Below the pieces are notes generated by a model. The model saw only the letters and a list, made by a program, of their open reading frames with translations, did not search any database and was not told where the DNA came from. A stretch of DNA of 64,000 nucleotides from Escherichia phage FL20: sequence record PP400781, one strand, 5' to 3'. Made by a program: the position numbers and the translations under genes. Of the stretch, positions 20,320-58,701 are shown piece after piece (the first letter of the stretch is position 1; the number at the start of each line of letters is the position of its first letter).

Positions 20320-21377
20320 TGAAAATTAGTGTTATCAATGATGCCGTTGATAGCTTTAAAGCGGGGGTTAAAACCTCCGCTGGTTTTACCTCAAAAAATA
20401 AAGGAAAAACATTAACCGCTCAATTCCCCGCTGAACGTGCTAGCGGTAATGATGCTAGCGGTTATTATATCAACGACTTATATAATAATGGTCTGTTATT
20501 CACTGCATACGATTATACATCTCGTACTACTGGTTCGTTGCGTGATTTCAGGAAAAAGAAAAATGTTGCTAGCGGTTTTGGCGGTAGCGTTAATATCGCT
20601 GGTTTTGATTTAAATTTGGGTGGGAGAAATGCTGCATTTGACCGAGAGGCAATTGCTAATATTCTTCTTCCTCGTAGTCAATCTGACGTTGACGCTGCTA
20701 GCCATAAGTTTAATGATGTTGGTGAATCTGTCATTTCTCGCGGTGGTGGTACTTTAGGCGGTGCTCTTTCTAATATGGCATCTACTGCCGTTTTTGGTGG
20801 TATCGAAAGTATTACTGGTGGATACCTTGCCGATCACGGTGAACAGATTTATAATACTGCGCGAAGCATGTATGCTGGTGCTGACGCACGAACTAAAAAC
20901 TACGTATGGCATCTAACCCCACGTAGTATTGAAGACCTTCGCAATATTTTGATCATATACGAAACGTTTTTAGAGTTGTCTTATGGGTCTAGTGGTATTT
21001 CCAGCACCGCAAAAGAATTAAAAGCGGAAGTTGATGCGTGGTATAAAAATACACTATTGAGAAAATCCACCCCAGAGGAAGCGAAGAGAAATGATACTCT
21101 GTTTGAAGGGATCACCGATTTTCTATCAAACGCAATTACTGTATCTAACCCGACAATATGGATGATCTCTAACTTCGGCAAGCGTACATCGTTTGAAGGG
21201 CGTAGCGATGCATTTGGTCCCGCTCAGATCTCAAGTGTACGTCTGGACAAGTCGCCTGATGGTAAGTTTAATGGCCTTGCTATTTCTCCTAACTTGCCTA
21301 GTACATTTGTTCTGGAAGTATCATTTAGAGAGATCTTGACACTTTCCCGTGGTACTATATTTGGGAGTGTGGTATAA
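20319..21377 (+). CDS. 48: baseplate tail tube cap gp48
   Basis: 352 aa; synteny. Confidence 0.85.
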   Translation: MKISVINDAVDSFKAGVKTSAGFTSKNKGKTLTAQFPAERASGNDASGYYINDLYNNGLLFTAYDYTSRTTGSLRDFRKKKNVASGFGGSVNIAGFDLNLGGRNAAFDREAIANILLPRSQSDVDAASHKFNDVGESVISRGGGTLGGALSNMASTAVFGGIESITGGYLADHGEQIYNTARSMYAGADARTKNYVWHLTPRSIEDLRNILIIYETFLELSYGSSGISSTAKELKAEVDAWYKNTLLRKSTPEEAKRNDTLFEGITDFLSNAITVSNPTIWMISNFGKRTSFEGRSDAFGPAQISSVRLDKSPDGKFNGLAISPNLPSTFVLEVSFREILTLSRGTIFGSVV

Positions 21378-22309
21378 TGTTTGATTTAAATGATTTTAAC
21401 GAACAAGCCGCTAACCTTGACTTTCAGCGATCTAACTTATTCAGCGTGGCATTTGCCACCACTCCAAGTAATAAGACACAAGCGATCCTAGAAAGTATGG
21501 GCGGTGCGGTATATGATATTATACCAAATGCATTAAATGACTATTTCGGGATTACTCGTGGTGATTATACTGACGCATTAACAAATCTTGCTGTACAGGG
21601 TGTTAGGCGTGCTGTTGATTCATCCGGTGTCAAAAAGTATCTTTTAGGTGCAATGTCATCCCGCGTAGTTCAATCTCTTCTGGGGCAATTTGATGTTGGT
21701 ACATATGCGCTTGACTGGTTCAATATGGCATATAAGACAAGCGGTCTTCTGGTGTATGCTGTTAAGGTTCCAGAAAACAGATTGAATTATGAAATGGACC
21801 GTAACCACAATGCGCCAAACATTCGAATTACCGGACGTGATTTTGATCCGCTTGTATTGAGCTTTAGAATGGACTCTAGCGCATCAAACTATAGAGCAAT
21901 GCAGGATTGGGTTAACTCAGTAGAAGACCCCGTTACAGGGCTTCGTGCGCTTCCTGTTGACGTTGAAGCAGATATTCAGGTTAACTTACATAACCGAATG
22001 GGAGTTCCTCACACGATCATGATGTTTAATGGTTGTGTTCCTGTTGGTGTGAGTGCACCGGAATTAACCTATGAAAATAACAACGAAATTACAACATTCG
22101 ATGTTACTTTTGCGTATAGGACTATGCAAACTGGTGCTGTAGGAGAGCAAGCCGCGCGAGAATGGATTGAGGATAAGGCAATAAACGCAATAACAAACAC
22201 TTTCGGCAATAATTTACTTGATAGTGGGTTATCTGCTGCTGGTAATGCTTTATCGCGTCTAAATGGCGTTGGTGGACGTGTGGTGAATACTGTCACTAAC
22301 TGGTTCTGA
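21377..22309 (+). CDS. 54: baseplate tail tube initiator gp54
   Basis: 310 aa; synteny. Confidence 0.85.
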   Translation: MFDLNDFNEQAANLDFQRSNLFSVAFATTPSNKTQAILESMGGAVYDIIPNALNDYFGITRGDYTDALTNLAVQGVRRAVDSSGVKKYLLGAMSSRVVQSLLGQFDVGTYALDWFNMAYKTSGLLVYAVKVPENRLNYEMDRNHNAPNIRITGRDFDPLVLSFRMDSSASNYRAMQDWVNSVEDPVTGLRALPVDVEADIQVNLHNRMGVPHTIMMFNGCVPVGVSAPELTYENNNEITTFDVTFAYRTMQTGAVGEQAAREWIEDKAINAITNTFGNNLLDSGLSAAGNALSRLNGVGGRVVNTVTNWF

Positions 22310-22316
22310 TAAACGA

Positions 22317-22347
22317 AAGGCGGGGATAATCCCCGCCTTTTTATTTT
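22317..22347 (+). terminator. rho-independent terminator after gene 54
   Basis: AAGGCGGGGAtaaTCCCCGCCTT hairpin plus TTTTATTTT; lies between convergent genes. Confidence 0.75.
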
Positions 22348-22826
22348 GCTAAATCATTGCAATATTTTAGTGCCTTAGTTTGAAATTCTGCGCTGTTAAG
22401 TTCTTCATAACGGTCATAATCACCGTTTAATGCTGCCTTTCTTGCTTCTTGCTCTATCTGCATGTCAGACATGATAATACAGCGATCCCGTGCTTTCATC
22501 TTCTCAAGTTGTATAGACTCTTCTTTCTGCTTGCGCAATTCTTCTTGACGCTTCTTTTCTTCTCGTGCTTTCTCTTCCCGCGCTTCTTTGATTGCATCCT
22601 TGAACATCTGCGTTTGTGGTGCTAAACCAACTTTAACTCGATCTACGTCTCGACGTTCCATTTTAGAAATAAAGCATGATTCGATCTGATCATCACTTGC
22701 ATATGCTGTTTTACATTCACGAAGCAAGAAAACCGGATCTGATTTAGCATTCATCATAGCTTCCATGTTGGCACAACCAGTAAGCATGAATGCAGCCGCA
22801 AGACCAATCAGTTTAATCATTTTCAT
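22341..22826 (-). CDS. lipoprotein with coiled-coil segment
   Basis: Signal peptide with lipobox LTGC; charged repeat KEAREEKAREEKKRQEELRKQKEE. Confidence 0.6.
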   Translation of the reverse strand: MKMIKLIGLAAAFMLTGCANMEAMMNAKSDPVFLLRECKTAYASDDQIESCFISKMERRDVDRVKVGLAPQTQMFKDAIKEAREEKAREEKKRQEELRKQKEESIQLEKMKARDRCIIMSDMQIEQEARKAALNGDYDRYEELNSAEFQTKALKYCNDLAK

Positions 22827-23647
22827 TTAGTCACCTCACCGAAAATTGTAAATTGTCTACGATTCTCATCGCCGAAAGATTCTACTACGTCGTTTACCTT
22901 GACGCAAGTCCCGCGCGGTAAAATTACTTCACATTCGCAAGGATTCCATGCAATTGACCCAACAACAAAACCTTTATGATCTTTTACGTCAATTACCCAT
23001 GATACATTACAAGAATGTTGCATCTTTCCGGTCATTGATTCATATCGATTCTCACAATAAAGGCTAGTGCTGTTTGATAGCCATCCTCCAAAGATGATCG
23101 GTGTCATGCTGGTAGATACAAAGTTTTTAAAGGTAAACTCCTTATATTCAATGATACGCTCTATTGTCTGAATGTCAAGATGTTGACCGCGATAAAGAGT
23201 ACCGTTTAACTTTTCGGTTTTATCCATGACGCAATCCATCAAATCGACAATCTCTGATATCTCATCGGTCATGTCTTCTTCCCCTAAGAGAGCACCATTT
23301 ACCCATTCGTATTGTTCAGATACATAATCACAGATTGCATTATATTCTGCTGGTGTTATGTTGTTATGTTTGTAATGTTTGAATACATTATCTCCAAAGT
23401 CTTCGGAGTGTACTTCATACATCACATTAATGATTTTCTTGACAAATCCATAATCTTGTGTCTCACGCTCAAGGAAGCGGATAACCTTCACATAATCATC
23501 AAAGTTAATCTGATCACTGATCATCTCAGTGATCATGTAACCATTAATCCCCTCAATGTCATATGTTTCGATGTAATTATCCATACGTTCCATCATTGAT
23601 TCGCGTGATTCTTCTGAAATACGAAAATCCTGTAATTTCTTGAACAT
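22823..23647 (-). CDS. ADP-ribosyltransferase, Alt/Mod-like (short paralog)
   Basis: R-S-E triad: LYRGQ, FVSTS, CECEVILPRG; same motif order as adjacent alt. Confidence 0.7.
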   Translation of the reverse strand: MFKKLQDFRISEESRESMMERMDNYIETYDIEGINGYMITEMISDQINFDDYVKVIRFLERETQDYGFVKKIINVMYEVHSEDFGDNVFKHYKHNNITPAEYNAICDYVSEQYEWVNGALLGEEDMTDEISEIVDLMDCVMDKTEKLNGTLYRGQHLDIQTIERIIEYKEFTFKNFVSTSMTPIIFGGWLSNSTSLYCENRYESMTGKMQHSCNVSWVIDVKDHKGFVVGSIAWNPCECEVILPRGTCVKVNDVVESFGDENRRQFTIFGEVTK

Positions 23648-23725
23648 TTTAAGCCTCCCATATAACAGAAAACGGGGCTAGTATAAAACTAGTCCCCGTT
23701 TGAGTCAACCATTATTTCTTAAAAA

Positions 23726-25777
23726 TTACATTTTAAATTTATCTGGCATTGCGTCTACAGATACCAGATCAGCGATAAGCTGACGTAGAGTTGCCTTATC
23801 TGCTTTCTTACGTTCGGTTTTAGCTTCGGTAATAAAGCTGGAGAAAGACAGGTCAGAAGCAGGTTTAATAACACCTTCACGGATGAATGCATCACCGTCC
23901 GCGATCATCTCGCCAGATTCTTGTAATGCTGCCAGTTCATTTTTGTTCATAATATGTGCCTCAATGTAATAAGTTTCTTGTGAATCCGTCGATGCCGTAG
24001 CACGAGTTACCGTATCAAAGGATAACACAACACCGCGAGGAAGTAAAATCTCGCATTCTTTGTAAGCAAATGCTTTGTTACCTACTGGCAAGACAGGGAT
24101 GTTTTCCGCGCCAGCAATGGAGAAAGCAACATTAGCGCCACCTTCACCACGAGAGCCAGCCATAGAATCAACACCAGCAACGGCACTAGCCACGTTTGCA
24201 TTCCAGCCGCCAAAAATGTTAGGTGCAAGGGAAGTGCTCACATAGTTTTTAAAGTAAAACGCTTTTTGCTTACGTGCAGTTTCCCACATTTGCGACCGGA
24301 AGTCCATACCACGATACAGAATAGTACCCGGATCAAGTTTAACTCCATAGTTGGAGAAGGCATTATCCAGTGCATCACACATCTTGACCAATTCTTCTGG
24401 ATCTGCGATGCCTTCAAACTCTTCCAGCTTACGGTCGGTTAGGAAGTTGTTCATATTGATGTATGCTGCATCGGCATATTCGCTCAACACAAAACCTTCC
24501 GCGCCCGGCAGATCAAGATCAATATCTGCCATCATTTCACCCATGTTGCTAGCAATTGCTTCAAACATACCGGAAGCAACATTACGTAGGGCATCGGTTT
24601 TAATCTGGGTGATGTGACTACGCAGCATTTCAGCTTTTACATCTGCTGGCATAGACTGGTCTACTCGATCCATTGCCAGGGCGGTGATCTTGTTTTCGAA
24701 TACTTCCTCGCTCATGATTTCTTTTAAGCGTTTGATTGATGCTGCGATAACTTCCGCAGACAATGGATCATATTGATCCTGAACTTTTACCAGTTCGCTT
24801 ACTGCGTATTTTGCATCGGCTTCGCTTTCAAAAATAGTACGCATGAAACCATAGCGAGTGATAATATCACTTGTCCAGTCATTCAGAGAACGAGCGGTTG
24901 AACGTTCTAAGGCTTGACGGTCAATCAGAGTATTAAACTGTTTCTTAGGTTCTGCTTCGGTGATATCTTCTTCCGGTTTAAGATTAATTTTTTCTGGATG
25001 ATTCACATAGTCGCTGTTATAGGTCGCTTGAGTTTTCAGCATTTCTTCTTTAGTCAAACGAGATTTAGCCGCTACGCGTTGTTCTGCTTCCGCGTTTCGT
25101 TCTTCTTCTGACACAAGACTAGCCGCATATGCCTCATCTTTAGTCAGAGATTCACCAGTAGCCTTAGATACCCAGCGATCACCTAAATCACTTTCTACTT
25201 TAGTGAACAAGGATTCATCAAGTTTAATCCCTTTAATCTTATCAATCGCCATCCCGCGACGCTTGACAACAACTAAAGCGATCTTTTTGCTGGTCATTAC
25301 TTCCTGCTGGAATACTTCAAACTTCGGTGTACGACGCACCAAACGCTCTATAACGCGCTTAACCAGTTCGGTCTTACCTTTCATGCGGGATACGTTAAAA
25401 CGGAACATAACAGCGTCTAATTGCGCTTTACGGGCTGTTTCCATAACCACATCAAAAGCACTTGACATAACTGCAATCGGGTTATCGCCTAGACCATTTT
25501 TAAGCTGTACAATACGACCGCTTTTGTTCATTTCGCACAGTACAACATGTGCGGTCTTGTCACCCATACGAATGATTTTAGGTGTTTTGTTGGTGAAGTT
25601 ACAAAGACGGACAATCACATCTTTATCGCGTGTCTGTACTGCAAAAAGCTGTTTAGGATTCTGCTTAGGCTTTAAGCACTGTACCGGGGCAATACTACCA
25701 AAGTTTTCTTCCTCTTCCGTCAACAGCCATTTCTCGAAAGATTCAATCATTAGATCGTCGATTTCTAAGTTAAACAT
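23726..25777 (-). CDS. alt: ADP-ribosyltransferase Alt
   Basis: 683 aa; R-S-E triad ILYRGMDF, YVSTSLAP, ECEILLPRG in C-terminal domain; position after gene 54. Confidence 0.85.
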   Translation of the reverse strand: MFNLEIDDLMIESFEKWLLTEEEENFGSIAPVQCLKPKQNPKQLFAVQTRDKDVIVRLCNFTNKTPKIIRMGDKTAHVVLCEMNKSGRIVQLKNGLGDNPIAVMSSAFDVVMETARKAQLDAVMFRFNVSRMKGKTELVKRVIERLVRRTPKFEVFQQEVMTSKKIALVVVKRRGMAIDKIKGIKLDESLFTKVESDLGDRWVSKATGESLTKDEAYAASLVSEEERNAEAEQRVAAKSRLTKEEMLKTQATYNSDYVNHPEKINLKPEEDITEAEPKKQFNTLIDRQALERSTARSLNDWTSDIITRYGFMRTIFESEADAKYAVSELVKVQDQYDPLSAEVIAASIKRLKEIMSEEVFENKITALAMDRVDQSMPADVKAEMLRSHITQIKTDALRNVASGMFEAIASNMGEMMADIDLDLPGAEGFVLSEYADAAYINMNNFLTDRKLEEFEGIADPEELVKMCDALDNAFSNYGVKLDPGTILYRGMDFRSQMWETARKQKAFYFKNYVSTSLAPNIFGGWNANVASAVAGVDSMAGSRGEGGANVAFSIAGAENIPVLPVGNKAFAYKECEILLPRGVVLSFDTVTRATASTDSQETYYIEAHIMNKNELAALQESGEMIADGDAFIREGVIKPASDLSFSSFITEAKTERKKADKATLRQLIADLVSVDAMPDKFKM

Positions 25778-25845
25778 TTTATATCCTCTAGTTGATAACC
25801 TATAAACCTATATTTATGAAAACGGGGCTTAACGCCCCCTTTTTA

Positions 25846-26058
25846 TTATAATGCACCATCGAGCAATTGCTCTAAGGTGTATCCTGAATAGTCTTTTTCA
25901 ATCAGGATATATTTTCCTACTCGTTTAATACAACCGCGCATTTCAACGTATTCTGCGTAGTTGATGGTGCGAGTTGTTCCATCTTCCAGTAATGCAGTAC
26001 CGATTTCGTTAATGCGGTCATAAGTTACGTCGGTAATGATGATTTCGATGTTAGCCAT
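25846..26058 (-). CDS. hypothetical small protein (70 aa)
   Basis: ORF directly downstream of PeSL cassette; starts MANIE like 28183..28434. Confidence 0.45.
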   Translation of the reverse strand: MANIEIIITDVTYDRINEIGTALLEDGTTRTINYAEYVEMRGCIKRVGKYILIEKDYSGYTLEQLLDGAL

Positions 26059-26123
26059 TTGATACTCCTTAGTAGTTCGTTTCGGTATGAGTGTATTATG
26101 ATATACACCATCTGTTATGTCAA
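26059..26123 (-). promoter_or_regulatory. PeSL-like early promoter cassette
   Basis: Minus strand: TTGACA, 17-nt spacer, CATAAT, conserved leader, AGGAGT RBS, ATG. Confidence 0.65.
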
Positions 26124-26129
26124 CAACTT

Positions 26130-26309
26130 TTAGAACATTTTTGAAATTAATTCTGCTTTGATTTCGCAGAGAACATCTAAAGATTTCTCGTCACCCGCTT
26201 TTGCTGCTTCTGCTTGCATTTTTGAAATGGCTTCAATGTCAGTGCAATTATAAGCCGCTTGAACTTTAGCTATTGCGATGATTGCCGATTCGATGGTTAA
26301 GTGTTTCAT
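26130..26309 (-). CDS. hypothetical small protein (59 aa)
   Basis: ORF with AGGAGAATC RBS downstream of PeSL. Confidence 0.4.
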   Translation of the reverse strand: MKHLTIESAIIAIAKVQAAYNCTDIEAISKMQAEAAKAGDEKSLDVLCEIKAELISKMF

Positions 26310-26371
26310 GTTTGATTCTCCTTTCGTTTCGGTATGTGTGCATTATAGGGGATCACCGATCCCCCTGTCAA
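26310..26371 (-). promoter_or_regulatory. PeSL-like early promoter cassette
   Basis: TTGACA / 18-nt palindromic spacer GGGGGATCGGTGATCCCC / TATAAT / leader / RBS. Confidence 0.7.
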
Positions 26372-26378
26372 CAATTTT

Positions 26379-26897
26379 TTAGTTATTTTTTAATTGCTCA
26401 TCTTGCAATAGGGCAATCACATGCTGGCGATGTTCTTCCGATTGAGGCACACCGAAAAAGTTTGTTTTGTAGAAATACTCTAATCGGTCTTCTCGTGTGC
26501 TCTCTTCCATCATGATCGCGGGTAGTCCGAGATTTCGGAAACGTCGCTTTTCTGCTGGCGTAAAATCACTGTAATACAACATAGAATCATCATTACAAGC
26601 AATGCTAAACTCATCCTTCATAAAGGAGAATATTGCGTTTAAACGCTGTTTACCGTCCACGATTTCGATCTCATAGCGAGAGCCATCATCAATCTTAGCC
26701 ATTGCGATAGCACCAACCGGAAAATCATTAATCAGGTTTTCGATAAACATACGTTTGTTTTCGGTGTCCCATACTAAAGGACGCTGATAATCTGGGTTCA
26801 TGTTGATATAGCCATCTTCTAACCATGCATCATAAACAGAGATGACAAAGTTTTTAGTATTGGTATAGTAACGGCGTTTAGGCGTTAAACGGTTCAT
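26379..26897 (-). CDS. DUF262 (ParB/GmrSD N-terminal-like) domain protein
   Basis: DYQRPLVW and IVDGKQRL match DUF262 QR and DGQQR motifs; start at MNRL coupled 1 nt after upstream stop with AGGAG RBS. Confidence 0.65.
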   Translation of the reverse strand: MNRLTPKRRYYTNTKNFVISVYDAWLEDGYINMNPDYQRPLVWDTENKRMFIENLINDFPVGAIAMAKIDDGSRYEIEIVDGKQRLNAIFSFMKDEFSIACNDDSMLYYSDFTPAEKRRFRNLGLPAIMMEESTREDRLEYFYKTNFFGVPQSEEHRQHVIALLQDEQLKNN

Positions 26898-26898
26898 G

Positions 26899-27231
26899 TT
26901 ATAGTCTCCTGAATGGATCATCACGTAAATCAATATCTTTTAAGAACTCATCCCATGAATGCCGGATATTGTTCTTAATTCTCCAGATAAGCGCAGGGAT
27001 TGAACGCTCTCCCATCTGGAAGTATGGATCATATGATCCGTATGCCCAATATGCTACTACAATTCCACAATCAGCGCAATAGTATTCTATTTCACTTGCT
27101 GGCGACCAAAGTCCATCAATATGATCGGTGATCTTGCTTTCGATGTTATGGCTATGACAATCAGGGCAACGGATGCAATGACCTTGTTTATCGTAATTTG
27201 ACGTTAGCGAATACTTAAACAATCTCATCAT
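26899..27231 (-). CDS. Cys/His-rich zinc-ribbon-like protein
   Basis: CIRCPDCHSH ... CADCG paired CxxC motifs; overlaps neighbours by 4 nt. Confidence 0.5.
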   Translation of the reverse strand: MMRLFKYSLTSNYDKQGHCIRCPDCHSHNIESKITDHIDGLWSPASEIEYYCADCGIVVAYWAYGSYDPYFQMGERSIPALIWRIKNNIRHSWDEFLKDIDLRDDPFRRL

Positions 27232-27944
27232 AGATCCTTATTTGCTTCAAATACTGCCTTTGCGAATCCTCGCGGGGTAAGTGACCTGATAGTCTTTGTT
27301 TTCGTTCCTTTCCCGCCTAGCTTAGAATGCTGTTTACTGTACCCTTTATTAATCTGCAAAGGTTTCTTTTCTGGCATTATAAAGCCTTGTCCGGTCCATA
27401 AGCAAGTCTTTTTTGGGTACATATCACGGGCGGCAATATACTCAGGAAACGTAGGATGCTTATCATCTTCCGGCAAATAACCGCCATATTCCCACGGATG
27501 GAACATATAATCAGGCTTACGCCACATGCTAGAGATAACGCTTACAGGATTCTCTATCATGTAGGGAACTCCTAGCCATTCACCCAAATAAGCGGTTATT
27601 TTAGCTGCCCTTACATCATGAACTTGAATCAATGGTCCTTGTTCTAGTTTCTTTCGTTCAAAGTGCGCAGCGCCACTAACAGCTAAATTGGTGCACGGTG
27701 GGAATGCAAAGATAATATCCGGTTTCCCCCATTCAAGGTCCATTGCTCTTTCCAGCCAATTCAAATCAATCCAGGTGTTTACATAGGTAATGTTTTGATG
27801 TTCAAATCGGGTATTATATTTTTTGTATGTACCGTGGTCGCCATCATCAGCATTAAAGCAGATCACCTTATGACCTGCTTTAGCCCATTCTAGCCCCATT
27901 ATCCCCGATCCGTCAAAGTTGCAGAATATTAATTTTTGTTTCAT
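27228..27944 (-). CDS. C5-cytosine methyltransferase-like protein (short)
   Basis: FCNFDGSG (motif I-like), FAFPPCTNLAVSG (PC motif IV-like), YMIENP (ENV motif VI-like); only 238 aa, no clear target-recognition domain. Confidence 0.45.
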   Translation of the reverse strand: MKQKLIFCNFDGSGIMGLEWAKAGHKVICFNADDGDHGTYKKYNTRFEHQNITYVNTWIDLNWLERAMDLEWGKPDIIFAFPPCTNLAVSGAAHFERKKLEQGPLIQVHDVRAAKITAYLGEWLGVPYMIENPVSVISSMWRKPDYMFHPWEYGGYLPEDDKHPTFPEYIAARDMYPKKTCLWTGQGFIMPEKKPLQINKGYSKQHSKLGGKGTKTKTIRSLTPRGFAKAVFEANKDL

Positions 27945-28434: not shown

Positions 28435-28503
28435 TGTTTGATTCTCCTAAGTGGTATCTCGTCTTGATGGTTGTATTGTAGGGGAGTTATCCTCCCCTGT
28501 CAA
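28435..28503 (-). promoter_or_regulatory. PeSL-like early promoter cassette
   Basis: TTGACA / palindromic spacer GGGGAGGATAACTCCCC / TACAAT / leader / AGGAGAATC RBS. Confidence 0.7.
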
Positions 28504-28550
28504 CACTTTTTATAAAATTATTTGTTAATTTCTGGTGCGTTGCTAGGATA

Positions 28551-28685
28551 TTAACCTTCTTTAACTCCGAGGTATTTCGCAACCATCCCTACAATCTTCT
28601 GTGCTACTACAATGTCAAATTTCAGATAATCTTCGCCGTGGGTTTCAATGATATATGCTTCACATGCTGCTTTAGTCTCGAACAT
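28551..28685 (-). CDS. truncated paralog of 31801..31968 (44 aa)
   Basis: MFETKAACEAYIIETHGEDYLKFDIVVAQKI; TAA replaces TAC, shortening it by 12 codons relative to the paralog. Confidence 0.45.
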   Translation of the reverse strand: MFETKAACEAYIIETHGEDYLKFDIVVAQKIVGMVAKYLGVKEG

Positions 28686-28747
28686 TTTTATTCTCCTATT
28701 TCGTTTCGTTATGTGTGTATTATAGGGGATCTCCCGATCCCCGTCAA
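28686..28747 (-). promoter_or_regulatory. PeSL-like early promoter cassette
   Basis: TTGACG / palindromic 17-nt spacer with two GATC / TATAAT / leader / RBS. Confidence 0.65.
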
Positions 28748-28761
28748 CAACTTTTTTAAAA

Positions 28762-29043
28762 TTATTCGTGATTAGTTTCGATGTTGTGCATTTTGCACCA
28801 GTTCAGCCAATCACCCAGATCCTGATAGTTAATTCTTTTATCTGCTGCCATCGTTTTTGTCTTGATACCCATATGTGCGTTATGAGTAAGCATTTTTACA
28901 GTGAACTCAATTTTATCACCTTTAGCTTTAACATCAACCAGTTTGGTCCACTGGCTACCAGCTCCGCGAATGTTCATACCAACGATGTTTCCGATGTATG
29001 CTTCTTTGTTTTTCAGGATTTCGGTTGCTTTGATGAATTTCAT
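28762..29043 (-). CDS. hypothetical small protein (93 aa)
   Basis: ORF downstream of PeSL. Confidence 0.5.
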   Translation of the reverse strand: MKFIKATEILKNKEAYIGNIVGMNIRGAGSQWTKLVDVKAKGDKIEFTVKMLTHNAHMGIKTKTMAADKRINYQDLGDWLNWCKMHNIETNHE

Positions 29044-29105
29044 TTTTGATTCTCCAGTTCGTTTCGGTATGTGTGTATTATGCTATGTTCTTACTTTGGT
29101 GTCAA
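29044..29105 (-). promoter_or_regulatory. PeSL-like early promoter cassette
   Basis: TTGACA / 17 nt / CATAAT / conserved leader ACACACATACCGAAACGAA / RBS. Confidence 0.65.
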
Positions 29106-29113
29106 CAACTTTT

Positions 29114-29383
29114 TTAGATATTTTCAGAAATAAATTTTAAAACTTGACGTAAATGTTTCTCATCTTTGATAGTCGCCGGAAGTTCTTCTTTTACTTCCTG
29201 TGCAAGATAGATATTTCCGTTCCAAGTGAAAGATCCGTCTTCGTTTACGCGATAGCTGAACATCCACTCGCAATCATTTTCGATTTCATATACACACAGA
29301 AGGGTGTAATCGTTAAAGCTATTGATTTCAAGGTCGAAGCCGTGACGTTTTGCAAAGTTGGTAGTGGTTTTAGTCAGCGCCAT
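29114..29383 (-). CDS. hypothetical small protein (89 aa)
   Basis: ORF downstream of PeSL. Confidence 0.5.
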   Translation of the reverse strand: MALTKTTTNFAKRHGFDLEINSFNDYTLLCVYEIENDCEWMFSYRVNEDGSFTWNGNIYLAQEVKEELPATIKDEKHLRQVLKFISENI

Positions 29384-29452
29384 TGTTTGATTCTCCTAAG
29401 TGGTATCTCGTTTCGATGGGTGTATTATGCTATAGGCGTGATCTGGTGTCAA
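29384..29452 (-). promoter_or_regulatory. PeSL-like early promoter cassette
   Basis: TTGACA / 17 nt / CATAAT / leader variant shared with cassette at 28435. Confidence 0.65.
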
Positions 29453-29476
29453 CAACTTTTTTAAAATTTTATGCAA

Positions 29477-29502
29477 TAAAAAAGCCGACACTAAGGTCGG
29501 CT
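29477..29502 (-). terminator. rho-independent terminator (minus strand)
   Basis: Minus-strand hairpin AGCCGACCttagTGTCGGCT followed by 7 U. Confidence 0.65.
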
Positions 29503-29509
29503 AATAAAA

Positions 29510-29818
29510 TCATTTAGACAAATAATCATTCAGTGCAATCCGGTTGGCGTATGCTGGTGTTACGTCAATCGCAATCACTTTAACGCGTGCTTTCTTGCGA
29601 CCTGGGTTTTCTCGTAACCAGTGCTCATGACCGTGAACATTTTTATACTGCGATGCTTCTTCGAAGGTACGGATCGGACCTGGATAATCTGCGTAAAGGA
29701 TCTCTAGGTCTTCGGTGATGTAAAAATATACATCATAATTACTGTTCTCTAGTTTAAGCAGAGACTTTCGGAACATTGGGAGATTTTCGCGGGTAAATTC
29801 AAAGATATTATCTTTCAT
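29510..29818 (-). CDS. small protein, HxHW family member A
   Basis: YDVYFYITEDLEILYADY ... HGHEHW ... VKVIAIDV; paralog of B-G. Confidence 0.55.
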   Translation of the reverse strand: MKDNIFEFTRENLPMFRKSLLKLENSNYDVYFYITEDLEILYADYPGPIRTFEEASQYKNVHGHEHWLRENPGRKKARVKVIAIDVTPAYANRIALNDYLSK

Positions 29819-29871
29819 AGTATTATCCTCAATAGTTGGATGAAAAGGGGTGGGGCTTAACGCCCCGTATA

Positions 29872-30159
29872 TTAAAACAGTCCTTCCTGTACACCGTAGT
29901 AGAGTTCATCGCTGATAATTTCATTAATGCGACGGTGTGCATATTCCTGATTTGCGAAGTTATCAGCAAGTTCTACTTTAGTTTCGCCGTCATGAGTCCA
30001 TTTAGTGATAACTTTACCATCTGCAAATTTGAAGTTGAACTCTTTAGCTACCGCATCGCGTACCAGACGTGCGAACTTGTTGTTACGGATTGCATTATCG
30101 GTTTCGTGTGCAGCGTGAGCGAATTTGTTAACTTTCAGAGTGATAGTAATGTATGCCAT
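29872..30159 (-). CDS. hypothetical small protein (95 aa)
   Basis: ORF downstream of PeSL. Confidence 0.5.
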   Translation of the reverse strand: MAYITITLKVNKFAHAAHETDNAIRNNKFARLVRDAVAKEFNFKFADGKVITKWTHDGETKVELADNFANQEYAHRRINEIISDELYYGVQEGLF

Positions 30160-30234
30160 AATTTGATTCTCCTAGTTAGAAAGTGTATCTCGTTTCGATG
30201 GGGATATTATGCTATACACCCGATCTTATGTCAA
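30160..30234 (-). promoter_or_regulatory. PeSL-like early promoter cassette
   Basis: TTGACA / 17 nt / CATAAT / leader / AGGAGAATC RBS. Confidence 0.65.
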
Positions 30235-31968: not shown

Positions 31969-32031
31969 TTTTGATTCTCCTATATCTCGTTGGTATGTGT
32001 GCATTATAGGGGATCACCGATCCCCTGTCAA
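31969..32031 (-). promoter_or_regulatory. PeSL-like early promoter cassette
   Basis: TTGACA / GGGGATCGGTGATCCCC / TATAAT / leader / RBS. Confidence 0.7.
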
Positions 32032-32038
32032 CAACTTT

Positions 32039-32341
32039 TTATTCTTCGTCTTTATCTTTATATGCGTATTTCATAAATTTGTCTGCTACTTCGTCCGCGT
32101 TTTCAGGTTCTACATCTGACGCTAGGACAACAGCTAGTTCGGTTTTGTCGTTTCCATCATACCAATGATTATGAGTGTCTTTTTCTTCGATATAAAACGA
32201 ATCATTTGGAGTTGGGCGACAATATACGTCTAAATTCCCATCGATATAAAAGATCCAATCCGAATACAAAATGATTGTTTTAGCCAGATTTTTATTGTCT
32301 CTTACAAAAGGTTCCGCGACAAATAGCTTAGTTTGTTCCAT
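32039..32341 (-). CDS. small protein, HxHW family member E
   Basis: WIFYIDGNLDVYCR ... HNHWYDG ... ELAVVLASDV; start at MEQTK. Confidence 0.55.
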   Translation of the reverse strand: MEQTKLFVAEPFVRDNKNLAKTIILYSDWIFYIDGNLDVYCRPTPNDSFYIEEKDTHNHWYDGNDKTELAVVLASDVEPENADEVADKFMKYAYKDKDEE

Positions 32342-32357
32342 AGTAATTTCCTCAAAA

Positions 32358-32549
32358 TTATACAGCTTCGTAAACTTCCCAATGTCCAACACCAGCACGC
32401 TTAACGAAAAGGTTTTCTTTGATGTTATTCATAAACGTCTGGATGGATTTAATGCGGTTGGAAGGTTTCCAGTCTTCGTTGGCATTGCGGCGATACATCA
32501 TAACATTACCAGTTCGCTTATATTCAGCAACCATTTTAAGACCACACAT
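32358..32549 (-). CDS. hypothetical small protein (63 aa)
   Basis: ORF downstream of a variant cassette. Confidence 0.4.
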   Translation of the reverse strand: MCGLKMVAEYKRTGNVMMYRRNANEDWKPSNRIKSIQTFMNNIKENLFVKRAGVGHWEVYEAV

Positions 32550-32627
32550 AATATTATCCTCAATTTGTGGGAGAGTATTACCCTCCCGATTATTGTTATA
32601 CTACATTACGCAAAATGGCGTGTCAAT
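32550..32627 (-). promoter_or_regulatory. variant early promoter with leader stem-loop
   Basis: TTGACA / spacer / TATAAC, then hairpin GGGAGggtaatactCTCCC in leader, RBS GAGGATAA. Confidence 0.5.
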
Positions 32628-32926
32628 GCTTCTTTTGCTGTTCCGCTAAGATTCTCGATCTCTCCTGGCATAACATCAACCGCAAGAACTTCTACAACAT
32701 CCTCTGATCCTAACCAGTGAGTATGACCTTTGTAGAACTTGATAACCAGACTACCTTCCTCATCCCATTTAACGCTATCGCTAGCCCACCACACATCACC
32801 GTCGATAAAGTTGATGTAAAGCACACTACGCCACATTGAATCGGTTACTTTCAATATTGCGCCTTTCATCTCTTCCACGGTGTGGTCTTCCATTTTGAAG
32901 ACCTCGCCTACTTGAACTTTTGCCAT
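32606..32926 (-). CDS. small protein, HxHW family member F
   Basis: VLYINFIDGDVWWASD ... HTHWLGSED ... VEVLAVDV; start at MAKVQ. Confidence 0.55.
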   Translation of the reverse strand: MAKVQVGEVFKMEDHTVEEMKGAILKVTDSMWRSVLYINFIDGDVWWASDSVKWDEEGSLVIKFYKGHTHWLGSEDVVEVLAVDVMPGEIENLSGTAKEALTRHFA

Positions 32927-32927
32927 G

Positions 32928-33194
32928 TTACATGCTCCGAATATGTTTAGCTGCATCTTCCAGTTCGTCGATAGTGACACTGTGTGCCAGTAAGTGTACT
33001 GGTTGTGGTTCTTCACCTTCCATAGTATTGATCAGATGACCGTTTCCTGGGTGGAATGTATCGTTGCCGTTCCAAATAGCATACACATCATCTTCTGTTA
33101 CGTAGATAATAAGTCCAATCGGTGATTCTGGTAATTGAAAAATTTTACCCACTGCATCTTTGCGATTGTCTACGATATCTTTTACTGTCTTCAT
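32928..33194 (-). CDS. small protein, divergent HxHW-family-like member G
   Basis: GLIIYVTEDDVYAIW ... HPGNGH ... HLLAHSVTID; weaker motif match. Confidence 0.4.
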   Translation of the reverse strand: MKTVKDIVDNRKDAVGKIFQLPESPIGLIIYVTEDDVYAIWNGNDTFHPGNGHLINTMEGEEPQPVHLLAHSVTIDELEDAAKHIRSM

Positions 33195-33213
33195 TTAGTT
33201 ACCTCTCGTTAAA

Positions 33214-33393
33214 TTACATCACAATCACGCCAGCCGTAGAAAGTTGATGTTTCAACTGAGCATTTTCTGCTACCGTCAAATCAATGATTTCTTGTGACGC
33301 TGCAATCATATAACCATTGGTGATATTGTTTTGCATCAGTTCAATGGTTTCTTCGTTGTAGCGGATTTTAGCGATGATTTCGTTGAAGTTCAT
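33214..33393 (-). CDS. hypothetical small protein (59 aa)
   Basis: Start at MNFNEII just downstream of PeSL RBS. Confidence 0.4.
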   Translation of the reverse strand: MNFNEIIAKIRYNEETIELMQNNITNGYMIAASQEIIDLTVAENAQLKHQLSTAGVIVM

Positions 33394-33456
33394 TTTTGAT
33401 TCTCCTAGTTCGTTTCGGTATGTGTGTATTATAGGGGATCGGTGATCCCCTGTCAA
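33394..33456 (-). promoter_or_regulatory. PeSL-like early promoter cassette
   Basis: TTGACA / GGGGATCACCGATCCCC / TATAAT / leader / RBS. Confidence 0.7.
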
Positions 33457-57900: not shown

Positions 57901-58701
57901 GGAACATCTCAAGTTGTTGATAGTAATGCTATCGCTTTCGGTAAAATCAATGATGGTGGAGTCGTCGAGCATTACGCCTTTGCTATGGAACACAATGGCG
58001 ACGCGACAGCATATAGAGACTTTATTGCAGGTCGTAACCTGTATGCGAAACAAGGCGGTTTATACATTGTTGACCAGTCTAATCCGGCAATGACTCGTTC
58101 CCCAGATGGTATGCTGAATATCGGTCACGGTGGAAGTGTTAACATCAAGGCAGGTCATCAAACGTTAACTACAGAGATCGCCGGACAGAAATATCAGATC
58201 GTCCACGCAGGAAACGCAGACGAAGTTCTTAACCGTCAGTTTGTTAAGAATGCTGGCGATACAATGGTCGGTAAGCTGACTATGGATAATGCGCCTATTG
58301 TTTCTGTTAAGCATGAAGCTAGCGCGGCAACCGCTCCGGCAATCAGCAACATCGGTTTCTGGAATATGCGCGTTACTACCCAGAACATCAAAGAAACTTA
58401 TCCAGAGAAGAAAAACGGTACTCTGATGCAATGGGGTACTGACGCGGACGGGCTTACCCAGCTTTGGTCCCCCGATGGTACTCATAAACATTATATCCGT
58501 TCCGGTACTGGTGGTCAATGGACCGCATGGGGTGAAATTTACACCAAACAGAATAAGCCTACCGCTCAGGAAATCGGGGCAGTAGTTGCAGAAGGTGGTT
58601 TAATGAACTCTATGACGGTTCGTGACTGGATCAAAGTTGGTAATGTTAAAATCATCGCCAATAATCTGACTCGTACCGTAGACTTTATCTGGGAAGACTA
58701 A
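54961..58701 (+). CDS. 34: long tail fibre proximal subunit gp34
   Basis: 1246 aa; about nine ~36-aa repeats of type ATExRRGIAEIATQxET; position after rnh. Confidence 0.9.
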   Translation: MADFSQHFKATFGFDAGNEKVVNVAYADKNTSTDAVNVEFFNYHNGITQYDTTRGYDQYGTTIYQNRPYYAKEDITKPAGDFDPTKWQALRTDPRWDYVAATSGDTPLKSGDYIAADGQFANLTFSMPTKPAEGDTITVKDIGGKCGVNELSFLSSGHEFYHNGNVYNRKWYCTTPYAMNYFIFVRNRWHVYQTGTEPRGVYAQPAIDAIQMQNGDQVFRRSSLGNITLVLPKFANNGDMIQTTDLDGLTATNHVTVKVHEHAEEQSIGTSGLKEIIGKRSGHGVFIFDKTENLWRLWDDDQSVRLNPIINDTRLQPNSYVAVFGGRDVTLTLPTNVEPGDRIQVSMQYMHGNQTCRIITSEEDTKILMQKNMVQFPKRSEYPFNGTDTWTGVSELSFNAANDYVPYLEFSYSEGDDGKKYWLVAHAHPIVERVDPTRKDRVGVIALATQDETNKNHEDNPSDEVAVTPKVLANKTANETRRGIARIATQAETHQDTGSNFLDDVIVTPKKLNDCVATEARRGVMEIATQHETNEGLDDTRAITPKKLEERRASEDLAGIAEIVQVGGSAAARRGEAGTGIYNINDHAKIVTPQNINEVKATETSRGVGYLATDAEVQGATESTPQDALLITTRTLTKRTATESRTGIAEIATQEETNLGQSDNHIITPKKLHTRRATETLHGLAEIATQSEFDAGLDDARISTPLKIKTFFENAQRLKVDPTQGLNLTGDLWQGIMISGLDATEDTKGVSKVATTQLTDAGQDDTTIITPKKLQGKKATEGKEGIIRVGTQAETVAGIMDNVAISPKNFKYVVQTEDTWKATEARRGFLKVATQENCFVGDNLQGSTQELGNYQHDGIAVTPKGLNYALANFLPKMATAQNSLKLGNVEAAKWARRDVDQTIESNYTFNKKVNVKGDLECLKSGSFETLSVTKNSTDDPSNGHLVLGERGVDGHTGITLHGTTASEGMENSWSIIVGGTGTSQVVDSNAIAFGKINDGGVVEHYAFAMEHNGDATAYRDFIAGRNLYAKQGGLYIVDQSNPAMTRSPDGMLNIGHGGSVNIKAGHQTLTTEIAGQKYQIVHAGNADEVLNRQFVKNAGDTMVGKLTMDNAPIVSVKHEASAATAPAISNIGFWNMRVTTQNIKETYPEKKNGTLMQWGTDADGLTQLWSPDGTHKHYIRSGTGGQWTAWGEIYTKQNKPTAQEIGAVVAEGGLMNSMTVRDWIKVGNVKIIANNLTRTVDFIWED

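Follow-up and report, generated by a model that had tools for sequence, protein, structure and literature searches.

A core-only Alt-family ADP-ribosyltransferase and an orphan lipoprotein between alt and gene 54 of Krischvirus phages

Introduction

Why does a T4-type phage with a full-length alt gene carry, directly behind it, a second and much shorter gene for an ADP-ribosyltransferase (ART), followed by a gene for a lipoprotein? The question is raised by the alt locus of Escherichia phage FL20 (sequence record PP400781), of which a stretch of 64,000 nucleotides, here termed the window, was analysed. In T4, Alt is packaged in the head, trimmed at its N-terminus and injected with the DNA, and it ADP-ribosylates arginines of host proteins, RNA polymerase among them. 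Among the tools of host takeover, phage ARTs are the classic ones, and interest in them has revived through new targets and through the RNA-linked modification carried out by ModB. A first-pass annotation, made from the sequence of the window alone, had read the locus as two ARTs followed by a lipoprotein. The three minus-strand open reading frames (ORFs) were recovered at the positions it gave, and Pfam, PHROG and BLASTP matches, a fold model and a lipobox all back the reading:

23726-25777, minus strand: alt, a full-length Alt orthologue of 683 aa (PHROG 802, E 2e-179 over residues 16-683)
22823-23647, minus strand: short Alt-family ART of 274 aa, corresponding to RB49p183/ORF183c (Pfam PF03496, PHROG 15144, PHROG 802)
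22341-22826, minus strand: orphan lipoprotein of 161 aa, corresponding to RB49p182 (lipobox, AlphaFold2, synteny)

The window belongs to the genus Krischvirus, the RB49-like relatives of T4. For bases 22000-26200 there are matches in 58 phage records, with 95-99% identity; every one of these phages is from this genus, FL04, kvi, JSE, Phi1 and RB49 among them. Part of what is described here is on record. Nolan et al. (2006; PMC1524935) counted RB49ORF183c, 44RR ORF188c and T4 alt.-1/alt.-2 among the paralogous duplications of alt. The RB49 annotation names the 683-aa gene alt, RefSeq labels RB49p183 'ADP-ribosyltransferase, similar to C-terminal part of T4 Alt protein', and in the record of phage W115 the gene after the short ART is labelled a putative lipoprotein. 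With the ART paralogy known since 2006, the genes already annotated and tandem alt paralogues common, novelty in these respects is low. Apparently undescribed in the literature searched are the separate and ancient clade formed by the short ARTs, the conserved insulation of the short ART gene by a promoter and terminator, and its invariable pairing with the lipoprotein gene, whose alleles are exchanged from the signal peptide onward. The model developed below has a late, packaged Alt, an early and unpackaged ART that consists of an Alt core, and an operon-mate lipoprotein with a role at the envelope; as a whole, it is given an even chance of being correct.

The short ART gene

The short ART scores 56.7 bits against Pfam PF03496 (ADPrib_exo_Tox), for which the cutoff is 23.4 bits, and matches PHROG 15144 with an E value of 1e-196. 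Alt matches the same Pfam family at residues 425-610 with 37.3 bits. In BLASTP, the two proteins of the locus match each other with E 1e-16, far beyond chance. It had been claimed from the sequence that both carry an arginine, an STS and an ExE element in the same order, and alignment bears this out: LYRG, STS and ECE are present in identical order in the two proteins. In Alt these are LYR489G, S514-T-S516 and E574-C-E576. The sites of the short ART are as follows:

23189-23191, minus strand: R153 of LYR153G
23108-23116, minus strand: S178-T-S180
22928-22936, minus strand: E238-C-E240

The gene is present and intact in 58 of 58 Krischvirus records, with at least 96% identity, and the ratio of nonsynonymous to synonymous substitution rates (dN/dS) in pairwise comparison of six genomes is 0-0.07. 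Among metagenomic relatives, R153, S178-T-S180 and E238-x-E240 are retained in proteins of 82, 63, 48, 45, 43 and 29% identity. The R, STS and ExE elements are invariant in all nine aligned homologues of the short ART as well as in two more distant ones (loci L028 and L029); ECE is replaced by ENE in two of the relatives. The first-pass annotation had named absence of catalytic residues from the short ORF as the finding that would speak against it, and these residues are kept in every relative examined. By these measures of conservation the gene is that of a working enzyme and not a remnant.

An AlphaFold2 model of the short ART has a predicted local distance difference test score (pLDDT) of 84.6 and a predicted template modelling score (pTM) of 0.82. 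When this model is searched with Foldseek, Vis, C3 (C3bot), iota/CDTa and Certhrax are each returned with a probability of 1.0, and the predicted fold is of the C3/Vis/iota ART type. The closest solved relative by sequence is the effector Tre1 (6dre), which is matched weakly (E 0.095). The short ART shares with these toxins and with Tre1 the fold and the R-S-ExE catalytic arrangement, but sequence identity is only 12-22%, and unlike the C3/Vis/iota-type toxins it is phage-encoded, cytoplasmic and devoid of a secretion or translocation domain. In ARTs generally, an ExE motif, rather than QxE, goes with specificity for arginine. The short ART is thus most likely an arginine-specific mono-ADP-ribosyltransferase, as its ExE motif suggests. 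It represents a compact and probably soluble Alt-type catalytic core, which would be handy for work on targets and structure.

Relationship to Alt and to the Mod enzymes

The 683-aa protein has the architecture of full-length Alts, which consists of an N-terminal region of about 330 aa with a common motif, the core, and a C-terminal tail ending in ...MPxKF; it shares 26% identity with T4 Alt across 695 aa (E 2e-57). The short ART covers positions 329-602 of the 674-position Alt profile (PHROG 802). It retains the helical subdomain and the catalytic core, and shares with T4 Alt the blocks F-x-N-x-VSTS-x-x-P-x-IFG-x-W and E-x-E-[VI]-[IL]-LPRG. The first-pass statement that most of the Alt N-terminal region is lacking holds, since the profile match begins at 329, and it can be extended: the C-terminal residues, about 75 in number and including the conserved tail, are missing as well. 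The N-terminal motif common to the full-length Alts was absent from the short ART when motifs were compared.

A neighbour-joining tree was built on the ART core with 200 bootstraps. The short ARTs form a clade of their own with 100% bootstrap support. The Krischvirus-type full-length Alts form a separate clade, also at 100%, and the Alts of Tevenvirinae fall into two further clades. A bootstrap value of 94% separates all Alt-type cores, the short ARTs included, from ModA/ModB; the order of the deepest branches is not resolved. In addition, T4 Alt matches the short ART with 86.7 bits, a higher score than the 66.6 bits obtained with the neighbouring Alt; thus the short-ART clade is no nearer to the Alt encoded beside it than to that of T4. 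The separate clade and the higher score of T4 Alt indicate that the short ART is an old paralogue lineage, and on the same two grounds a recent duplication of the neighbouring alt gene was rejected as its origin.

Does the short ART then take the place of a Mod enzyme? It matches Alt PHROGs only, and not the Mod-family phrog_832. A Mod-family protein is found elsewhere. In the RB49 genome OZ035808 (loci L016-L019), a 182-aa ORF at L017:37698-38246 on the minus strand adjoins homologues of genes 56 and 61; E values are 1.5e-7 for its match to T4 ModB and 5e-21 for that to phrog_832, and the elements LYRG, SFT and ERE are present in it. No significant match to T4 ModA was obtained in this genome by tblastn. 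The strong form of the proposal, in which the short ART replaces missing modA and modB genes, was rejected, as the whole RB49 genome has a Mod-family ORF.

A weaker form of the proposal is that the short ART does the job of ModA, completing the ADP-ribosylation of R265 of the RNA polymerase alpha subunits after Alt has modified one of them, since Krischviruses have a single Mod where T4 has two. The lone Mod homologue of RB49, which is matched by T4 ModB, is consistent with this, as are the apparently early expression of the short ART (see below) and the total of three ARTs, the same number as in T4. However, that lone homologue could itself be ModA-like in function, and the core of the short ART lies in the Alt clade and not in the Mod clade. 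This explanation is a possible one, on the unlikely side. What the short ART would share with T4 ModA and ModB is chiefly its deployment, namely that of a small ART in the cytoplasm, some 200-270 aa long, probably made early and with an R-S-ExE site; it differs in belonging to the other branch of the family, and the genuine Mod homologue occupies the T4-syntenic position near genes 56 and 61. The ART repertoire of Krischviruses is three enzymes, Alt, an Alt-derived core and one Mod, versus Alt, ModA and ModB in T4. Under the model favoured here, the RB49 group would have found a solution other than that of T4 to the scheme of an injected enzyme plus newly made enzymes; current views are not overturned by the locus.

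Transcription signals

The boundaries of the two units of the locus are marked by the following features:

23670-23708, minus strand: cassette of the PeSL type, with -35 TTGACT at 23708-23703, a 17-nt spacer and -10 TATACT at 23685-23680 (sequence; promoter scan 10/12)
25811-25818, minus strand: CATAAATA, a motif resembling late promoters, 33 nt ahead of the ATG of alt (motif scan)
25824-25838, minus strand: terminator-like hairpin closing the upstream early gene, just before the alt promoter (terminator scan; fold -14.2 kcal/mol, z -4.4)
22315-22341, both strands: bidirectional intrinsic terminator common to the lipoprotein gene and gene 54 (12-bp stem with 7 GC pairs, T-run on both strands)
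21377-22309, plus strand: gene 54, coding for the baseplate tail-tube initiator; it is convergent with the three genes and defines the position of the locus (Pfam PF06841, PHROG 45; gene 54 in the RB49 annotation)

The gap between alt and the short ART is 78 nt long and opens with an AT-rich stretch. A 13-bp bulged, G/C-rich hairpin at 23701-23670 shares sequence with both the spacer and the -10 box, and the sequence after it, UUUUCUGUU, supplies a U-run; the hairpin folds with -20.6 kcal/mol and a z score of -3.8. The annotation of phage GEC-3S marks a promoter at this cassette. No late-promoter motif was seen in the 78-nt intergenic sequence upstream of the short ART.

The promoter ahead of the short ART is kept in nine of nine sequences, which cover every lineage examined and include some with ARTs of just 30-63% identity. 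Seven of these (window, RB49, JK32, L014, L013, L011 and L008) have TTGAC[AT]-17-TATACT together with the AACGGGG...CCCCGTTTTCT hairpin, among them relatives with ART proteins only 42-63% identical. Compensatory changes are present at two stem pairs among the five hairpins that were folded. The two remaining sequences, L028 and L029, have promoter-like variants; that of L028 was picked by eye after a pattern search had missed it, and requires that the ART start at a downstream Met.

Cassettes of this kind, termed PeSLs, have been described and partly tested in RB49 and phi1 (Arbiol et al., 2010; PMC2839356). In these elements a stem-loop terminates transcription from upstream and a sigma-70 promoter drives early transcription of the next gene (PMC2839356). 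The copy between alt and the short ART shares with them a stop codon in an AT-rich stretch, sigma-70 -35 and -10 boxes, a G-tract/C-tract stem-loop over the -10 box, a Shine-Dalgarno sequence and a start codon. It differs in having hexamers slightly off consensus (TTGACT and TATACT), in the absence of the stereotyped leader ACACACATACCGAAACGA, and in its location, as it divides a putative late gene from a putative early operon instead of flanking ORFans. Judged by its motifs, the cassette is a PeSL, with the same architecture as the experimentally active RB49/phi1 elements. The transcript from its promoter would not terminate itself, because the start would fall inside the 3' arm of the hairpin.

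At the other end, the terminator at 22315-22341 has an RNA fold of -19.6 kcal/mol (z -4.4), and it is marked on both strands in the GEC-3S annotation. The short ART and lipoprotein genes would therewith form an early bicistronic operon that ends at a terminator shared with gene 54.

The signals upstream of alt are of a different type. The motif at the equivalent position is TATAAATA in T4 and T2 and AATAAATA in the metagenomic relative L008, and in the window TATAAATA is also found 20-40 nt upstream of several further start codons, in the baseplate and tail-fibre region. A NATAAATA motif that follows a terminator precedes alt in the window, T4, T2 and L008. Upstream of alt in L029 there is a CTAAATA variant, which lies outside the scanned pattern; here the motif variant alone, and not the hairpin, was checked. 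The window gene resembles T4 alt as a full-length, syntenic orthologue, convergent with gene 54 and located behind a terminator and late-promoter motif. The alt gene would thus be a late gene, insulated from the short-ART unit.

Near-identical early-promoter cassettes, with the pattern aaaa-gTTG-TTGACA-17-(C/T)ATAAT, occur elsewhere on the minus strand of the window, at 26095-26371, 28475-30234 and 32003-33456. Several of them have a G-tract/C-tract hairpin in the spacer, and the leader ACACACATACCGAAACGA...AGGAGAATCAAA-ATG stands ahead of small ORFs. These cassettes, located at 26-34 kb, are the published RB49/phi1 PeSL elements.

Packaging

T4 gp21 cuts a small N-terminal peptide from gpAlt (PMC9958956). 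The T4 prohead-protease motif, [LI]xE, is found at residues 4-7 in all Tevenvirinae Alts. In the Alt of the window, MIE stands at the aligned position and LTE is found further on, at residues 19-21. In the short ART there is ISE at residues 10-12, but a motif of this kind also stands near the N-terminus of ModA. As every 100 aa contain some 1-3 [LI]xE tripeptides, the search for gp21 sites is uninformative.

It is conceivable that the short ART is also packaged in the head and injected. Late read-through of the hairpin, which would be leaky owing to its bulge, would yield the protein; it would then go to the prohead and be trimmed in the manner of gp21 substrates, and the phage would inject two different ARTs; T2 and Dhakavirus may act similarly with their two or three full-length Alts. 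The tandem full-length Alt paralogues of those phages, the position of the short ART gene in a late-gene neighbourhood beside alt, the bulge in the cassette hairpin, and the presence of [LI]xE within residues 5-13 in five of six lineages are in keeping with such a scheme. The motif is short, however, and it is equally near the N-terminus of T4 ModA, which is not packaged, and of the RB49 Mod homologue. The short ART also lacks the N-terminal 330 or so residues, with their motif, and the conserved C-terminal tail of the full-length Alts, and its gene has a sigma-70 promoter in all nine sequences, a visible terminator hairpin in seven, and no late motif. Packaging of the short ART is on balance unlikely. 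Most likely the short ART is not packaged, as favoured by the missing terminal regions of Alt, the conserved early promoter and the terminator. It would then differ from T4 Alt in transcription and deployment as well as in length.

The lipoprotein

The ATG of the lipoprotein gene overlaps the stop codon of the short ART gene (ATGA). Two parts of the protein stand out in its sequence:

22773-22826, minus strand: lipoprotein signal peptide and canonical lipobox, MKMIKLIGLAAAFMLTG|C
about 22497-22601, minus strand: highly charged helix (sequence, AlphaFold2)

The signal, MKMIKLIGLAAAFML-TG-C18, has a positively charged n-region, a hydrophobic h-region and the lipobox L-T-G-C with Ala at +2. Among 19 homologues the -3 and -2 positions of the lipobox are L or I and T, N or F, and five cysteines are invariant: that of the lipobox, C38, C51, C116 and C156. 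The positions of the latter four suggest two disulfides, which would fit a periplasmic protein. At +2, every homologue has Ala, Ser or Val and none has Asp, which by the Lol rule of Escherichia coli indicates sorting to the outer membrane.

The AlphaFold2 model of the lipoprotein (pLDDT 87.4) is all-helical and includes a 62-residue helix spanning residues 72-133. The first-pass annotation had described a charged coiled-coil repeat. A charged helical stretch is indeed present, with residues 81-101 being 76% charged and 14% hydrophobic, and so is a DNA repeat of 15 nt x 2.2 at 22554-22585 within the charged stretch; one homologue has an 11-residue duplication there. The coiled coil itself is not demonstrated, as the best heptad register of helix 72-133 has 50% hydrophobic residues at a and d positions, a poor pattern. 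An ER/K-type single spacer helix looks at least as likely.

No informative family or fold relative of the lipoprotein was found in any library searched (Pfam, PHROG, PADLOC and fold searches). An exhaustive HMMER search yielded only 10 cluster representatives among 1.84 billion, and no homologue outside the Krischvirus-like phage group was found in those searches. The protein represents a cleanly defined orphan family, and the exchange of its alleles, with a break that falls right in the signal peptide, makes the gene a good candidate for one involved in conflict at the envelope.

Could the lipoprotein belong to the lysis machinery, for example as a component like an outer-membrane spanin with a long periplasmic helix? 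It is of the outer-membrane type and has a 62-residue helix, and it is the lone clear lipobox ORF both in the window and in the whole RB49 genome, by a simple pattern search that would miss atypical spanins. Yet there is no adjoining inner-membrane partner, the upstream neighbour being a soluble ART and the downstream neighbour a terminator. There is also no C-terminal transmembrane segment, and the C-terminus (…KYCNDLAK) is not hydrophobic. Moreover, the operon stands behind an early-type promoter, next to an ART gene and far from the holin gene, and no PHROG lysis family is matched. A lysis function is therefore very unlikely.

Linkage to the short ART and exchange of alleles

The order alt, short ART (264-282 aa), lipoprotein, convergent gene 54 is found in all eight lineages inspected. 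In each of them, including those with the most distant lipoprotein homologues, the ART and lipoprotein reading frames overlap or abut. The pair has been kept together in these eight lineages while the ARTs diverged to about 30% identity and the lipoproteins to about 22%.

Within the genus, the two genes differ in their variation. Eight of the 58 Krischvirus records have lipoprotein alleles with just 26-30% identity in the mature part, and the adjoining ARTs are 97-99% identical. At the DNA level the exchanged alleles are identical through the signal peptide, unrelated in the mature part, and identical again at the stop codon and terminator. Even lineages with ARTs of only 45-63% identity have lipoproteins closer to allele 1 than the exchanged alleles are, from which it follows that the alleles are old and have been moved by recombination. 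The allele exchange argues for an interaction of the lipoprotein with a variable component of the envelope.

Alleles are also mosaic internally (L006/L007 2501-3013 and the homologues P0015, P0047-P0049 and P0052). Some join the type-1 signal peptide to another N-terminal mature module, and several types share a C-terminal module (...EAAYQDDLSSAYEEGDYEK...KLRKQCDDLIK). Recombination has thus occurred inside the lipoprotein gene as well as at its edges.

Strict linkage raises the question of whether the lipoprotein is an immunity or antidote partner of a toxic short ART, as in Tre1-Tri1. Such a partnership would explain the synteny and the overlapping or abutting frames in eight of eight lineages, and Tre1 is, weakly, the nearest solved sequence relative of the short ART. 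The predicted compartments differ, however: the ART has no signal peptide, and its partner has a lipoprotein signal and cysteines of the disulfide type. Furthermore, lipoprotein alleles of 26-30% identity beside ARTs of 97-99% identity argue against a specific ART-lipoprotein interface. An immunity function is regarded as highly improbable.

A model for the locus

The preferred model is that of an alt locus with two transcriptionally separate units. Alt would be made late, and its fate would presumably be that of T4 Alt: packaging in the head, N-terminal trimming and injection along with the DNA. The hairpin after alt would terminate its transcription, and the sigma-70 early promoter embedded in the PeSL would drive the two-gene operon. 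The short ART would be newly synthesised in the cytoplasm at an early stage of infection, an Alt-type core deployed in the way of ModA and ModB, and could modify host proteins in a second wave or modify a different set of them. The lipoprotein, translationally coupled to it, would be exported to the outer membrane, face the periplasm, be held by two disulfides, and act at the envelope of the infected cell. Its most likely role would be superinfection exclusion or envelope protection, because the mature part is exchanged as a cassette between near-identical phages.

A receptor-masking role in the manner of T5 Llp (PMC9586334) is the analogy nearest at hand. T5 Llp and the Cor proteins of T1 and phi80 are early lipoproteins that block the phage's own outer-membrane receptor. 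The lipoprotein of the window resembles these in that its allelic variability suggests an interaction under conflict. It differs in having no sequence or fold similarity to them, in being much larger and all-helical, and in its linkage to an ART gene and not to the gene for the receptor-binding protein.

Several observations weigh against this model. Because a Mod-family ART is encoded elsewhere in the genome, the short ART does not just fill an empty Mod niche. The [LI]xE motif at residues 5-13 in five of six short ARTs would allow for packaging after terminator read-through. The promoter scan of the single window is not significant by itself, with 12 sites versus 10.3 expected; the evidential weight is thus on the conservation of the promoter across lineages. 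The literature search yielded no expression, proteome or functional data on RB49p182/p183 and no expression or virion-proteome data for any Krischvirus, so that timing and non-packaging rest on motifs. No known exclusion protein matches the lipoprotein by sequence or fold in the PHROG, PADLOC and fold searches. Finally, lipoprotein alleles do not co-vary with the receptor-binding tip of gp37: the lipoprotein gene is about 40 kb from that of gp37, and gp37 tip identity is not clustered by lipoprotein allele, although this is a weak test, as the tips are themselves mosaic.

A further step would be to regard the short ART and the lipoprotein as one conserved, early 'two-compartment' cassette with a joint function so far undescribed in T4-type phages. 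This is a tentative proposal, and probably not correct as it stands. If it were true, the enzyme, constant and cytoplasmic, would serve to rewire a host target that is itself conserved, and an exchangeable outer-membrane lipoprotein would meet a variable partner at the envelope, for instance a receptor, a rival phage or a defence seated in the envelope. Perhaps the shared task would be to shield the ADP-ribosylated cell from secondary infection or from abortive responses triggered at the envelope.

Duplications at the alt locus of other phages

The alt locus is a duplication hotspot among T4-type phages. T4 keeps a decayed copy of the 5' end of alt, alt.-1/alt.-2 (L005:4066-4451), which still starts with MELITELFDG. 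There are two full-length Alt genes in T2 (L020) and three in Dhakavirus UGJNEcP3 (L021), and 44RR has ORF187c/188c. These share with the Krischvirus arrangement the locus and a duplication between alt and gene 54. They differ in that the copies elsewhere are full-length or decayed N-terminal fragments, whereas the extra copy in Krischviruses is conserved, encodes the catalytic core only, has a promoter of its own and is joined to a lipoprotein gene. The alt copies of T4, T2 and UGJNEcP3 all precede an alt.-3-like ORF of 96 aa, which Krischviruses do not have.

A reading of the short ART as a pseudoenzyme or a duplicate in decay, which its truncation and the decayed partial copy at the same locus of T4 might suggest, is effectively refuted by the conservation data: an ORF intact in every Krischvirus record under purifying selection, catalytic residues kept down to about 30% identity, and a confident fold model.

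Other observations

The upstream side of the locus has homologues of genes 29, 48 and 54 on the plus strand. Within alt, a 200-aa antisense ORF at 25203-25805 on the plus strand is a mechanical ORF on the non-coding strand and not a gene. The same applies to an antisense ORF within gene 34, at 58236-58391 on the minus strand; some ORFs of this kind mimic signal peptides.

With respect to superinfection exclusion, a tblastn search with T4 Imm gave no match in RB49, and T4 Spackle (Sp) has a weak tblastn match (27% over 74 aa, E 0.07) at L017:41612-41806 on the minus strand of OZ035808, in the neighbourhood of genes 61 and 41. On these sequence comparisons, the set of superinfection-exclusion genes in Krischviruses may differ from that of T4.

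The tips of gp37 are strongly mosaic in the genus, with 64-100% identity. The gp37 of OZ035808 (L017:15986-18928) has a C-terminus resembling an intramolecular chaperone, and no gp38 gene follows it. OZ035808, which is named 'Krischvirus RB49', differs by 15% in the gp37 tip from the reference RB49 sequence NC_005066; thus the two are not the same isolate.

Upstream of alt, at 26379-26933 on the minus strand, the window encodes a 184-aa protein that has an N-terminal DUF262/GmrSD_N domain alone (PF03235, E 7e-20), without the nuclease half. A homologue of DNA methyltransferases is encoded near it, at 27228-27944.

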